DNA of 64,000 nt from contig CAWJJV010000024.1 in assembly GCA_963843235.1 (NCBI GenBank), positions 155,590 through 219,589 of the forward strand, in the 5' to 3' direction. The DNA is from an uncultured Alphaproteobacteria bacterium. Its GTDB lineage: Bacteria > Pseudomonadota > Alphaproteobacteria > Rhizobiales > Xanthobacteraceae. This document shows, one piece after another, positions 4,326 through 48,779 of this stretch. The position numbers were made by a program, and so were the translations under genes. The notes under the pieces were generated by a model. That model was not told the origin of the DNA, did no database searches, and was given only the letters and a program-made list of their open reading frames with translations. Position 1 is the stretch's first letter. Each line of letters begins with the position of its first letter.

Positions 4326-4363
4326 ACCAACTCCGGTACCAAATCTGACGAGGCCAATGCCGA

Positions 4364-4468
4364 GCAGCCCAATATCGCTTAGCGCAAGATCAATTAGCCC
4401 AAGATCCCTTAGCGCATGATCACTTAGCCCAGGATAACTTAACCCAGGATCACTTAACCCATGACGGC
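4364..4468 (-). repeat. 15-bp tandem repeat of the last five codons of mlaF including TAA
   Basis: Units at 4379, 4394, 4409, 4424, 4439 and 4454 (ttagcgcaagatcaa, ttagcccaagatccc, ttagcgcatgatcac, ttagcccaggataac, ttaacccaggatcac, ttaacccatgacggc), plus a degenerate unit at 4364. Confidence 0.9.
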
Positions 4469-5224
4469 GCGGGCACGCTTGCCGTGGAAATAGGCCCTCA
4501 ACCAGGGATGCTGTGAGGCCTGCATGTCGGCCATCGATCCCGCGGCAATGATCTTACCGTTCCCTAAAACGGCAATGCGGTCGCAAGCGGTGTAAAGGCT
4601 GTCCAAATCGTGGGTTACCATGAAAACGGTCAGCCCCAAAGTACGCTGCAGGGTCCGGACCAGTTCGTCGAAGTCGCCGGCACCGATCGGATCGAGGCCG
4701 GAGGTCGGTTCATCGAGGAACACGAGTTCCGGATCGAGCGCGAGCGCGCGCGCCAGCGCCACGCGCTTGATCATGCCGCCGGAGAGTTCCGAGGGGAAAC
4801 GATCGGCCACTTCGGGGCGCAATCCGACCATGCCGAGCTTGGCCTCTGTGATCTCGTCAAGCAATCGCTGCGAGACTTTCAGATATTCGCGCACCGGGAA
4901 CTGGATGTTCTGCCGCACGGTCAGCGAGGAAAACAGCGCGCCCTGCTGAAACAAAATGCCCCAGCGCCGCTCGACGCCGCGCCGCGCCTTGGCGTCGGCG
5001 GCATCGAGATCGATCCCGAACACCTCGATGCGGCCGCGGGTTTTCGGCACGAGGCCGATGATGGTGCGCGTCAGCACCGATTTGCCGGAACCGGAAGGTC
5101 CGACGAAGCCGAGAATTTCGCCGCGCTTCACGTCGAGGTCGAGCCCGTCCAGCACCTTGGTGGCGCCGAATTGCACCGCGATATCGCGAACCCGGATGAT
5201 GGCGTCGGAGATTTCAGGCGCCAT
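4454..5224 (-). CDS. mlaF: ABC transporter ATP-binding protein, MlaF/Mkl family
   Basis: GPSGSGKS Walker A, LSGGM signature, FLDEPT Walker B; start MAPEISD at 5224 (the ORF-track extension upstream is not coding). Confidence 0.9.
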   Translation of the reverse strand: MAPEISDAIIRVRDIAVQFGATKVLDGLDLDVKRGEILGFVGPSGSGKSVLTRTIIGLVPKTRGRIEVFGIDLDAADAKARRGVERRWGILFQQGALFSSLTVRQNIQFPVREYLKVSQRLLDEITEAKLGMVGLRPEVADRFPSELSGGMIKRVALARALALDPELVFLDEPTSGLDPIGAGDFDELVRTLQRTLGLTVFMVTHDLDSLYTACDRIAVLGNGKIIAAGSMADMQASQHPWLRAYFHGKRARAVMG

Positions 5225-45016: not shown

Positions 45017-46835
45017 ATGACCGAACTGACCGAACCTCCAAAGAAAATCACCGACGATCCCTACGGCGCGGCGGTTCTGATTCGCCGCCTGGTCATGGAA
45101 CAGGGGATCGGCCACTGGCGGCGCTACCTCACGGCATTCGCACTGATGGCGGTCTCCGCCGGCGTTACCGCCGCCGCCACCTATGTGCTCGGCCAGGCCA
45201 TCAACCAAGCCTATGTGAACAAGGACATCCACGCCATCGCGTTATTGTCCGGCGTTACGGCTCTTCTGCTGTTCATCAAGGGCGCGGCGACCTACGGCCA
45301 CACCGTGATCCTGTCCAAGATCAGCAACACCATCCTCGCCCACAACCAGCGGCGGCTGTTCGCCAAGCTGATGCGCGAGAGCATCGGCTTCTTCTCCGAA
45401 CGGCATTCGTCGGAATTCCTGGCGCGGCTGACCGCCGGCGCAAAATCGATCACCGACGTGCTCAACATGCTGGTCAATGCGATCGGGCGCGATCTGTTGA
45501 TGTTGATCGCCATGATCGGCATGATGGTGTTTCAGGATCCGATGCTCTCCTTCATCGGCCTCATCGTGGTGCCGCCCGCCATGCTGGTCCTGCGCAAGCT
45601 GGTGAAGCGCATCAAGGGCCTCGCCTACAACCAGTTCACCGGCACCGCCGACATCATGGAGACGATGCAGGAATCGCTACAGGGCATTCGGACGGTGAAA
45701 GCGTTCACGCTCGAAGACACCATGCAGAAGCGCATCGACGAGGATATCGCGATCGTCGAGCGCAACGCCAACAAGATGGCCCGCGTCGCCAATCGTTCGA
45801 ACCCTCTGATGGAGACGCTCGGCGGCTTCGCGGTCGCGGGCTGCTTGCTCTACGGCGGCTACCGCGTGGTCGCGCTCGGCGCCACGCCGGGCCAGTTCTT
45901 CACGTTCCTGACCGCCTTCCTGATGGCGACCGAACCGGCCAAGCGGCTGGCTCGGCTCAATATCGACCTGAACAGCCAGCTGGTCGGCGCGCGGATGCTG
46001 CTCGAAATCGTGGACAGCCCGGCGAGCGAGCATTCCGACGACGACAAGCCGGCGCTGAAGCTTACCGACGCGCGGATCGAACTGCGCGACGTCAGCTTCG
46101 CCTATCGTGCCGGGGAAAACGTGCTCAACCGCATGAGCTTCGTCGCCGAGCCCGGCAAGGTCACCGCGCTGGTCGGCCCCTCCGGCGGCGGCAAGTCGAC
46201 GGTGCTCTCCCTGCTGCTGCGCTTCTATGAGGTGACGCAAGGCGAAATCCTGATCGACGGCCAGTCGATCTCGTCGGTGTCGCGCAAATCACTGCGGACA
46301 CCAGACCGCCTATGTCGGGCAGGACGTCTATCTGTTCCGCGACACCATTCGCGAGAACATCGCGTTCGGCAAAGTCGGCGCCAGCGAGGCCGAGATCATC
46401 GCCGCCGCCAAGGCCGCCTGCGCGCACGACTTCATCATGGGCTTTCCGCTCGGCTACGACACGCCGGTCGGCGAGCACGGCACCCAATTGTCCGGGGGCC
46501 AGCGCCAGCGCGTCGCGGTGGCCCGGGCGCTGGTCAAGAACGCCCCGATCATCCTGCTCGACGAGGCCACCGCCGCACTCGATTCGGAATCCGAACAGCA
46601 GGTGCAGGAGGCGATCGAGCATCTCTGCCAGAACCGCACCACCATCGTCATCGCCCATCGCCTGCACACCATCATGCATGCCGACGCCATCCTGGTGGTC
46701 GAGGGCGGCGAGATCGTCGAGCGCGGGCGCCACGACGATCTGCTGCGGCGCGGCGGGCGCTATGCCTCGTTCTTCCGCCTGCAGCATCGCGAAAGCGGCC
46801 CCCTTACACTGGCGCCGATCATCGCAACCGCGTAA
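45017..46835 (+). CDS. msbA: MsbA-like ABC exporter (lipid A flippase); frameshift near 46298
   Basis: TMD plus NBD; GPSGGGKS, LSGGQRQR, LLDEATAALD, IAHRL; located at the end of the LPS cluster. Confidence 0.8.
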
Positions 46836-46876
46836 ATACGATCCGTTTTTCCGCAACCCCGCCGAGACCCCCTTTC

Positions 46877-47579
46877 ATGAACGCCACATCCTTTGTCATT
46901 CCCGCCCCTCCGCAGGCCTCGATCCCCGTCGCCGGCGAATCGAAATCGTTTCCGGTCCGTCGCATCTGGTGCGTCGGGCGCAATTATCTCGAGCACATCC
47001 GGGAGATGGGAAATGACGAGCGCGCGCCGCCGTTCTTCTTCGCCAAGCATGCCGACATGATCGAGCCGGACGGCGCCACCATCCCCTACCCGCCGCTGAC
47101 CAAGGATATGCACCACGAAGTCGAACTGATCGTGGCGATGAAGAGCGGCGGCCTCAACATTCCCACCGAGAAGGCGCTCGATCACGTCTATGGCTATGCC
47201 GTCGGCATCGACCTCACGCGCCGCGACCTGCAGCAGGCCGCGCGCAAGAAGGAGCGGCCGTGGGAGATCGGCAAATCCTTCGACCATTCCGCGCCCTGCT
47301 CCGCGCTGCAGCCGGCCTCGAAGATCGGCCATCCCTTCGAAGGGCAAGATCTGGCTCTCGGTCAACGGCACCGAACGTCAGAAGGGCGACCTCACCGAAT
47401 TGATCTGGAGCGTGCCGGAGATCATCTGGCAGTTGTCGCAGCAGGTCGCGCTCGGCGCCGGCGATATCATCCTGACCGGCACGCCGGCCGGGGTCGCAGC
47501 ACTTTCGCCGGGCGACAAGATCGAATGCGGGGTCGATGGCGTCGGCACCCTGAAAGTCGCGATCGGCAAGCCGGAATAG
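46877..47579 (+). CDS. Fumarylacetoacetate hydrolase family protein; frameshift near 47335
   Basis: RRIWCVGRNYLEH, PFFFAK, HHEVEL, GIDLTRRDLQ, GKSFD, LTGTPAGV. Confidence 0.9.
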
Positions 47580-47610
47580 GCGTTACGCCGCCTGCATCGC
47601 CGCCAAACCA

Positions 47611-47640
47611 CAAAGGCCCCGAACCTGTTCGGGGCCTTTG
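47611..47640. terminator. Intrinsic terminator
   Basis: caaaggccccgaac-ct-gttcggggcctttg, near-perfect hairpin. Confidence 0.75.
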
Positions 47641-47699
47641 TTACGTCATCAGAGGCGATCGCAAAGACCGGCAACGACGACCGGGCAAATCAACAAATC

Positions 47700-48345
47700 A
47701 GTGTCCAGCCCGTTTCTCAAAAATATTTCGATTCCCATCTGACCCAAATCACCGGCTTATCTCCCGCCATCCCGTCCCGAGAGAGGGCGTATCGCGATCG
47801 TCACGGACGTTGGGATGGGATGCGGTGGACGCGGCAGCGTCGTCGCGCGAGGGGAATGCAGGGCGGGCTTTCAATTGAGGGAATGCCCTTGAGCGTATCC
47901 CCGGCGCGTGGACGAACGGCGCTTCAACGCCTTTGCAGAAATGCGGTTGGCAGCACATGGCCGACCTGAGGATCGGCAGAGGTTGCTGCGTACGGCAAAA
48001 CCGTGTGGTCCTGGCACCCGTTGCTGGTGTCAAGTCGGCGGAGGTTCACGAGCCCAACCGGGTTTCGTTGTACCTTAATCCGTCGGCGAGGGTCGACAAG
48101 ACGAATTCGTCGCCCCGGGAGAGCGCGCCATAAGCCGTAAAACCATTGCGCAGGAAATGCCGGGTGTTCCGGTGACCTGTGGTGACTACCGTGTGCTTAC
48201 TACACTTCGCACACGGGCTGCGGGTGCAACGGGCACCCGGCGTTTCCTGCGCCCTCGCTTGAGGGTCGCGCCTGCGCCCCTCTGATTTTTAGGGGCGATC
48301 ATTTTGCAAACTCGGGCGCATCGTGCCGCGAGATCGCGTAGCTGT
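47700..48345 (+). ncRNA. Long highly structured intergenic element (candidate ncRNA or non-autonomous mobile element)
   Basis: No credible ORF; many stems, e.g. 48148-48166 with 48234-48252 (19 bp, one G-U) and 48189-48196 with 48209-48216. Recalled as multicopy in Bradyrhizobium (not verified). Strand tentative. Confidence 0.5.
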
Positions 48346-48360
48346 ATCGAGAACTATCAA

Positions 48361-48558
48361 CGTCATTGCGAGGAACGGAGCGACGAAGCAATCCAGTCCT
48401 TACCTGCTGCCCTGGATTGCTTCGCTGGCGCTCGCAATGACGGTTGCTAGACTACGGCACGCTTTCAACCGTCATCGCCCGGCTCGACCGGGCGATCCAG
48501 TATTCCAGACCGCTGGTGATGGAATTGAAAAACTGCGGCGTACTGCTCGCAATGACGG
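48361..48558. repeat. Two adjacent GTCAT...ATGAC palindromic elements (48361-48443, 48469-48558)
   Basis: cgtcattgcgag...ctcgcaatgacgg, then ccgtcatcgcccggctcgaccgggcgat...ctcgcaatgacgg. Confidence 0.8.
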
Positions 48559-48623
48559 TTCTGAGCGAACCGGCTGTTTGAAAATCAAATCGGAAATTCG
48601 ATGAACCGCACCGGCCGCCGCGT

Positions 48624-48779
48624 TCAGGCCCGCGCCAGCGCCTGCAGGCCCTTGAAGGTCAGGCGCTTGGGGTCTTTCACGCCGGCCAGATAAAGCCCGC
48701 GAATGAAGGCGGTGGCCGCCTCGCGGTTACAATCGGTCAGCGCAACCACGGCATCGACGGCAATTCGCTGGGCGTCCAT
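48624..48779 (-). CDS. 51-aa small protein missed by the ORF track
   Basis: MDAQRIAVDAVVALTDCNREAATAFIRGLYLAGVKDPKRLTFKGLQALARA; AGGAGG SD at 48785-48790; GC3-rich codons. Confidence 0.75.
   Translation of the reverse strand: MDAQRIAVDAVVALTDCNREAATAFIRGLYLAGVKDPKRLTFKGLQALARA

Follow-up and report, generated by a model that had tools for sequence, protein, structure and literature searches.

Within the window, by which we mean the whole 64,000-nucleotide stretch of DNA that was analysed, an intergenic structured RNA element of about 650 bases occupies positions 47680-48345 on the plus strand, with a gene for an FAH-family hydrolase that ends at 47579 on one side and a convergent gene block on the other. 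A perfect 15-bp terminator-like hairpin (47610-47641) follows the hydrolase gene and precedes the element, in agreement with a first-pass annotation, made from the sequence alone, in which the element was said to start after a terminator. That annotation had placed the element at 47700-48345; the end at about 48345 holds, while the start has to be moved outwards, as the element reaches about 47680. We also share its view that the element contains no credible open reading frame (ORF): the eight ORFs of 41-94 aa inside it have zero matches in Pfam or NCBIfam, and the copies of the element described below show many indels that are not multiples of three. The Rfam scan that had been proposed leaves the element outside all Rfam 15 families, with zero family matches at gathering thresholds over the whole window and noise only (e.g., plant miRNA models) at E values up to 10 over 47500-48700. 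Additionally, a search of the literature found no paper describing this RNA family; the only repeats described there were the short Br-REP1/2 and CGTC/GTAG REPs.

The genes immediately upstream, which encode an ABC transporter and the FAH-family protein (45017-47579), are seemingly broken by frame changes. One 953-aa ORF (45017-47878) spans both of them, orthologues of the FAH gene from the genus align only from residue 40 of a 129-aa C-terminal ORF (47190-47579), and the FAH open frame measures 145 aa compared with 240-280 aa in relatives. These broken frames could be pseudogenes or assembly indel errors.

Read from its 5' end along the plus strand, the repeat unit begins at 47680-47701, where similarity among copies starts; here the window copy carries a minority variant, GGGCAAATCAACAAATCAG, while most copies carry (T)GATTTGCC. 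There follows a leader of the Bradyrhizobium type with three conserved boxes: TGTCCAGCC (47702-47710), found in 38 leaders of the same genome with no more than one mismatch; the A/T box AAAAATATTTC (47719-47729), kept in copies and preceded by 8-10 nt that vary, whose letters would suit either a -10 box (AAAAAT) or an UP-like element; and TCTGACCCAAATCACC (47738-47753), which lies in the segment where other genera have a sigma-70 promoter. The first helix of the consensus fold, P1 (47760-47829), consists of 16 bp between 47760-47778 and 47812-47829, and its apical region is nearly invariant, with GAGAGGGCG at 47781-47789 and GATCGTCACGG at 47796-47806. Next comes a variable, dispensable arm (47830-47990) made of nested helices (47836-47923) and a hairpin (47964-47977); its helices have one to three pairs each in which both sides have changed, and short variants and other genera lack the arm or have other sequence in its place. 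The middle domain (47993-48137) is closed by a helix between 48002-48012 and 48117-48127 and contains the hairpins 48013-48018/48026-48031, 48034-48042/48079-48087 (with 48049-48055/48060-48067) and 48090-48097/48109-48116, the last of them formed around GACGAATTCGTC; ten double-change pairs of the consensus fold fall in these helices. The 3' domain is a long irregular hairpin (48148-48252) with a 19-bp closing helix, inner helices at 48177-48183/48217-48223 and an apical hairpin at 48189-48216, and it is the most conserved part of the element across genera. At its foot lies CGCCCTCGC (48250-48258), a candidate partner of GAGAGGGCG with co-occurring variants. In the variable 3' region behind it, copies bear one to three GCCCTC/GAGGG hairpins, here the short hairpin CCCCTCTGATTTTTAGGGG (48277-48295), which a pattern scan scores as terminator-like, yet at a frequency expected by chance. 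The unit closes with a conserved tail hairpin, ACTCGGGCGCATCGTGCCGCGAGA, followed by some 12-15 conserved bases (together 48310-48345). This hairpin has 8 bp, three of them changed on both sides; in genus g19, GGCGC/GUGCC is replaced by GGCUC/GAGCC. A search with its pattern gives 57 matches in the window's own genome, mainly tails of the element, with a few due to chance.

All stems named in the first-pass annotation are present, within one base of the coordinates it gave. Specifically, CATCCCGTCCC at 47768-47778 (given as 47769) pairs with GGGATGGGATG at 47812-47822, TGGCACC (48012-48018) pairs with GGTGTCA (48026-48032), GACGAATTCGTC is located at 48100-48111, the 19-bp helix 48148-48166/48234-48252 is perfect and encloses an 8-bp hairpin (48189-48196/48209-48216), and the two hairpins near the 3' end are found at 48277-48295 and 48310-48333.

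The fold is a property of one strand. Compared with dinucleotide shuffles, the plus strand has a folding energy of -305.7 kcal/mol (z = -4.5) and the minus strand one of -268.4 kcal/mol (z = -2.3). A consensus structure built from 22 full-length copies of the window's own genome comprises 136 pairs with 97.7% of cells paired; both sides have changed in 37 of these 136 pairs, and nearly every helix is supported in this way. Across the same copies, G-U pairs make up 14% of paired cells on the plus strand, in line with the earlier remark that mismatches in the stems were G-U compatible and favoured pairing at the level of RNA; as these cells would be A-C mismatches on the other strand, the fold belongs to the plus strand. 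A covariance model likewise scores sense copies at about 196 bits and antisense copies at about 48 bits. Compensatory changes thus conserve a fold made up of a 5' hairpin, a variable arm, a middle domain, a 3' hairpin domain and a tail hairpin.

The 3' domain (48095-48262 in these alignments) allows this to be followed beyond a single genome. In an alignment of 30 copies from the own genome (A1), 8 of 44 pairs are changed on both sides; in an alignment of 35 sequences from at least 14 genera (A3), 96.8% of cells are paired and the number of double-changed pairs rises to 23 of 44. None of 500 shuffles of A3 reached the observed value of any of five measures, and sliding the partner by one to three columns lowered pairing to 32-46%. 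Across genera P1 retains 11 pairs, several of them changed on both sides (e.g., one with CG in 19, UA in 8 and UG in 8 sequences). In the middle domain, the stem tggcacc/ggtgtca occurs among the aligned copies also as tggcgcc/ggcgtca and tgacgcc/ggcgtca. Beyond the nested helices, the loop motif GAGGGGCG (47781-47789) could pair with CGCCCUC directly after the long helix (48250-48258). Variants of the two sides co-occur (GAUGA with UCAUC, GCGA with UCG, AAA with UUU), and of 99 cases at the three outer positions, 63 are paired, compared with 50.8 ± 4.0 after shuffling; 11 of 5000 shuffles attain the observed count. With moderate confidence, we therefore regard these two segments as a candidate long-range contact that would tie the loop of the 5' hairpin to the 3' end.

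The element is one of many. Its own genome (5.7 Mb) contains about 55 matching places by blastn, 66-91% identical, which bears out the expectation of more than one copy. The unit ranges from about 450 to 650 nt and has about 20 helices, with full-length copies at about 635 nt. Shorter copies fall into classes without positions 244-305, 170-305 or 154-435 of the query (window positions 47680-48360); only internal positions are missing, and both ends are thus always kept. Among 23 aligned full-length copies, the median pairwise identity is 79.5% and the maximum about 91%, apart from a single pair at 99% that may be an assembly duplicate; this one pair aside, the genome is without very recent copies. 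Similarity between units begins at (T)GATTTGCC/TGTCCAGCC (about 47680-47702 here) and ceases 12-20 nt past the GCGAGA of the tail hairpin (about 48345 here). Under crude gene calling, the copies are strictly intergenic, with zero overlaps with called genes. In 36 of 50 copies (72%), the structured strand is the G-rich, leading strand, a bias that is expected of heavily transcribed genes and also of elements moving as single-stranded DNA.

A CGTC-type REP palindrome begins 19 ± 1 nt after GCGAGA in about two thirds of copies, and this fixed spacing suggests a shared insertion or recombination site. CGTC-tagged REPs have been described (PMC3733652), as have the Br-REP1 and Br-REP2 repeats, and REPs occur in the 3' UTRs of Bradyrhizobium (PMC5082802). 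In the window, such palindromes stand directly after the element, at 48361-48445 and 48545-48560 (CGTCATTGCGAG...CTCGCAATGACG, with the inner hairpin CGAAGCAATCCAG/CTGGATTGCTTCG).

The mention in the first-pass annotation of dispersed multicopy repeats in Bradyrhizobium proved sound: by DNA search, 23 of the 24 genomes sampled from the genus have the repeat, which is multicopy there, with counts that range from about 55 down to one (G135). A model of the 3' domain (R1), run on 151 genomes from 62 genera of the window's taxonomic family, found the RNA in 47 of the genomes and 22 of the genera, at 1 to at least 18 copies per genome. With a further model (R2), applied to 150 other genomes of the order, all three genomes from the window's own family matched, as did two genomes of family f15, weakly but in a structurally convincing manner, and no further families. 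The RNA family is thus confined to the window's taxonomic family plus weak relatives in one other. Neighbouring genes are unrelated from genus to genus. In genus g19, each genome has exactly one copy of the RNA gene, which lies between the same flanking genes in three species and has diverged about as much as those genes have. On the other hand, a complete 8.3-Mb genome of the window's own genus (G015) gave marginal matches only, none of them convincing, and another genome of the genus (G022, 87% complete) gave zero matches. Since a complete genome of the genus does without the RNA gene, any cellular role must be dispensable, and we infer that the gene is accessory or selfish and not housekeeping. 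Phage records had zero matches to the family, and plasmid records had one partial match only.

In most other genera, a sigma-70 promoter, (C)TTGACA followed after 16-18 nt by TATATT, lies a few bases upstream of P1, and in 20 of 26 loci of other genera 9-12 of the 12 sigma-70 positions are matched at this fixed place; near-consensus promoters occur in multicopy genera as well. In one genome (G138), four copies that are at least 95% identical start at the -35 box, and at one of them (L119) unrelated sequence directly adjoins that box. Copies of the window's own genome have a best sigma-70 match of 6-8 of 12 positions, without a canonical promoter, and carry instead the additional leader of about 75 nt with the boxes TGTCCAGCC, AAAAATATTTC and TCTGACCCAAATCACC. 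Of 23 full-length copies that were scored, at least 8 have TTGCCT, 16 nt and AAAAAT at a fixed place on the unit's left edge, which by its letters may be a weaker promoter belonging to the Bradyrhizobium-type leader. Bradyrhizobium-type copies, including the one in the window, appear to have lost the canonical promoter. At its left edge the window copy differs and has no TTGCCT, and for lack of this -35 box it may be poorly expressed or silent.

Signals of transcription were sought in public sequence collections. Contigs of three soil metatranscriptomes over 47742-48545 have a summed depth of 36-200 times that of the flanking gene, and a run of unknown kind has about 7 times the flanking-gene depth over the element, but these depths come from assembled contigs, in which any repeat with many copies, be it RNA or DNA, will appear deep. 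Being inflated by copy number, and high in the run of unknown kind too, they are not counted as proof. More than 20 RNA libraries of soil, freshwater and rhizosphere, drawn from more than 15 studies, also have contigs with conserved 31-letter words of the family, and some of these libraries comprise only 50-100 million letters; this is suggestive, as it is more easily explained by abundant RNA than by stray DNA.

An important aspect of the family is how its copies relate to one another and to the places they occupy. None of 29 relatives within the genus that have the FAH gene carry the element behind it, and a contig from a soil RNA library joins 47579 to 48624 through 19 other letters, the whole intergenic block being absent there. 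Elsewhere positions can be shared: two sister species (G043 and G017) have the L002 copy in syntenic position. In a tree of the 3' domain, all ten G017 copies fall in one clade (support 100), eight of ten G043 copies group together, as do 36 of 39 copies of the window's genome, and each of the three syntenic L002 copies groups with its own genome-mates. Copies that cluster by genome even at syntenic loci point to concerted evolution, most simply read as the outcome of gene conversion between copies; bursts that recur in individual lineages and favour certain sites could also produce such clustering.

Behind the FAH gene of the nearest relative (G043) lies an insert of about 1 kb with low GC content (L033:1765-2834) and small ORFs on the opposite strand. 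As this gap holds a different insert, the spot takes up different cargo in different species.

Whether these repeats are better understood as mobile DNA deserves careful weighing. Were they non-autonomous DNA transposons (MITE, PATE or REPIN), with hairpins for the use of a transposase that perhaps acts on single-stranded DNA and with RNA as a mere by-product, this would account for the many dispersed intergenic copies, for internally deleted variants that keep both ends, for the small hairpins near both ends and for copy positions that differ between species. The 72% bias in orientation to replication resembles that of IS200/IS605 elements, and the CGTC-type REPs that adjoin about two thirds of copies fit the same picture. 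We nevertheless consider this unlikely. There are no terminal inverted repeats in the element or in the copy alignments, and the two ends of the unit differ (TGATTTGCC/TGTCCAGCC versus ...GCGAGAATGCGGAG). Target duplications were not seen in 34 copies, where the longest word shared by the flanks averages 5.2 nt compared with 4.9 nt for mismatched flanks, though the copies are old and very short duplications could have decayed. No parent insertion sequence with the same ends was found either, all blastn places in the genome being free of genes, and the 90%-complete genome has no Y1 transposase (PF01797) or TnpB zinc ribbon (PF07282). Also counting against a transposon are covariation over the whole 650 nt instead of at the ends only, with many strand-specific G-U pairs, the single-copy syntenic genes with a consensus promoter in other genera, and the results for phages (zero matches) and plasmids (one partial match). 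Two longer blast places were considered as an autonomous partner and rejected, since they consist of solo unrelated fragments with ordinary genes between them.

If instead the element worked in cis, as a REP- or BIME-like stabiliser, terminator or insulator acting through neighbouring genes and not as a free RNA, its invariably intergenic position, here just past the terminator of the upstream gene, would be explained, as would its embedding among REP repeats known from Bradyrhizobium 3' UTRs (PMC5082802). Such a role is hard to reconcile with a near-consensus promoter of its own at a fixed distance from the first helix in most genera, with a size and multi-domain fold that far exceed the needs of a terminator or stabiliser, and with neighbours that are unrelated between genera and an orientation to flanking genes that looks mixed under crude gene calls; we think it very unlikely. 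More improbable still, to the point that we would be greatly surprised by it, is a retroposed, SINE-like element whose RNA would be copied by a trans-acting reverse transcriptase. In reaching dozens of dispersed copies without a transposase, a structured RNA gene driven by a promoter does resemble eukaryotic SINEs, but the 90%-complete genome lacks an RVT_1 domain, no A-rich or otherwise added tail and no target duplication were seen on the copies, and the copied unit includes a promoter upstream of the predicted start, which makes retroposition unlikely. The idea of a mobile RNA that spreads at the level of RNA, raised from the window alone, thus finds no backing: the repeated unit brings its own promoter, from the -35 box onwards, and no RVT_1 domain accompanies it. 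The related idea of a guide-bearing RNA tied to an enzyme is not supported either, as TnpB, RVT_1 and Y1 are absent from the genome and IS110 is unlinked to the copies. Specifically, of 11 IS110 genes only one lies near a copy, whose tail it interrupts, the flanks of the four-copy IS110 are unrelated, and no variable guide segment matching the flanks was seen. The earlier statement that no function or mobilising enzyme is assigned still applies to the RNA family.

The exceptional IS110-family element (335-aa recombinase; G000:C30:553000-555430, locus L008) is inserted in the 3' end of a copy directly after ...CCTGCGCCCTT, where it replaces the tail.

Among known systems, the closest likeness is to the large bacterial RNAs OLE, GOLLD, ROOL and raiA, which also measure several hundred nucleotides, have many covarying helices, no coding capacity and at least one candidate long-range contact, are restricted to certain lineages, and whose function is not evident from gene context. 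The present RNA differs from them in lying outside the Rfam models, in its roughly 55 copies under concerted evolution, and in being found on chromosomes only, with no link to phages and within Bradyrhizobium and related genera. REPs, BIMEs and REPINs are dispersed intergenic hairpin repeats of the same genomes, likewise with numbers that vary strongly between strains, but they are palindromes of 20-40 nt or dimers thereof without a promoter, whereas the element is a 450-650 nt multi-domain unit with one, and the RAYT/Y1 gene is absent from the own genome. A REP or BIME identity was accordingly rejected on the grounds of unit size and about 20 helices; true REPs flank the element. ERIC and Correia/NEMIS elements are also multicopy and intergenic, have a conserved structure when transcribed and occur as internally deleted variants; however, they have terminal inverted repeats and target duplications, both of which are missing here, and they are co-transcribed with neighbours, whereas this unit brings its own promoter. 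With 5S RNA, snRNA and Alu/B1 genes the family shares a structured RNA gene with its own promoter in dozens of dispersed, concertedly evolving copies. SINEs spread by reverse transcription and have internal promoters; here, by contrast, the promoter lies upstream and is copied with the gene, and there is no reverse transcriptase. Omega RNA/HEARO and IS110 bridge RNA are structured RNAs at the ends of mobile elements that can outnumber their enzymes, but no HEARO match was found even at E values up to 10, TnpB is lacking, and the 11 IS110 genes are not adjacent to copies, except for the one inserted in a tail. An ORF-less group II intron was considered too and rejected, there being no Rfam group II match at E values up to 10 and no RVT_1 domain.

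Taken as a whole, the evidence makes it probable that the stretch in the window is a copy of a dispersed, DNA-amplified gene family for a large (about 450-650 nt) structured non-coding RNA, accessory or selfish in nature. The early suggestion of a large structured ncRNA is thereby supported by the plus-strand fold, its covariation and the lack of an Rfam 15 match. Two features expected of an independent RNA gene were found, namely a covarying fold on one strand and a promoter of its own at a fixed distance, the latter in other genera only. Under this gene-family reading, the RNA would be made as an independent transcript and would act as RNA, be it as a scaffold, with a protein partner, or as a precursor trimmed to a stable hairpin core. 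Spread would take place at the DNA level, through duplication or ectopic recombination with ongoing gene conversion, as suggested by a copied unit that carries its promoter and by the lack of a reverse transcriptase or matching transposase. A bolder proposal is that the family represents a new class of large pseudoknotted bacterial RNA, an RNP scaffold or a catalyst, encoded by a self-amplifying, promoter-carrying gene that is homogenised by recombination alone in Bradyrhizobium; we regard it as conceivable but rather doubtful. If true, it would be a bacterial counterpart of the dispersed small-RNA gene families of eukaryotes, without an enzyme encoded by the element.

What is new here is the promoter-driven form of the gene at 1 to at least 18 copies in other genera, the single syntenic copy in one of them, the start of the repeated unit at its -35 box with no mobilising enzyme, terminal inverted repeats or target duplications to go with it, the concerted evolution of the copies and the genomes that lack the RNA; the single-copy, syntenic, promoter-driven form in a related genus could not have been seen from the sequence of the window alone. 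Bradyrhizobium and its relatives are among the most abundant bacteria of soil and root nodules, and an RNA of 0.5 kb that reaches about 55 copies per genome accounts for roughly 0.5% of the chromosome. Large RNAs with such covariation have usually turned out to be biochemically unusual. The single-copy version with its strong promoter would permit a direct test of function if a culturable, genetically tractable member of g19 exists. The family also offers a clean case for studying how a gene without an enzyme multiplies and stays homogeneous in a bacterial genome. In practical terms, gene calling is likely to mistake its copies for hypothetical proteins, and assemblies are likely to break at them.

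Several minor observations accompany these results. The distant relatives in f15 (L095:1200-1631 and L096) are shorter and number two in each genome. The long closing helix is shared by them (GCGCGUGGAACGCCGGG/CCCGGCGUUCCGCGC), the apical part is reduced, and a TTGACA box follows AACATATTCC. In G048, a member of g19, the single RNA gene has two copies of a repeat of about 150 nt on each side (L061:3227-3622 and 4363-4750). A second match to the 5' hairpin motif in G110 (L062:601-702), some 3.7 kb from the single full copy of that genome, may be a solo 5' fragment. Finally, several genera have the motif GGCTGTTTGAAAATCAAATC (48572-48591 in the window) shortly downstream of their RNA gene (L061-L063, L074, L078, L082). 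The own genome has 32 loose matches to it, about 15 of them convincing and 7 within 700 nt downstream of a tail; as the motif occurs away from copies too, we rejected it as a part of the unit, and apparently it stands at the head of a further family of small repeats.
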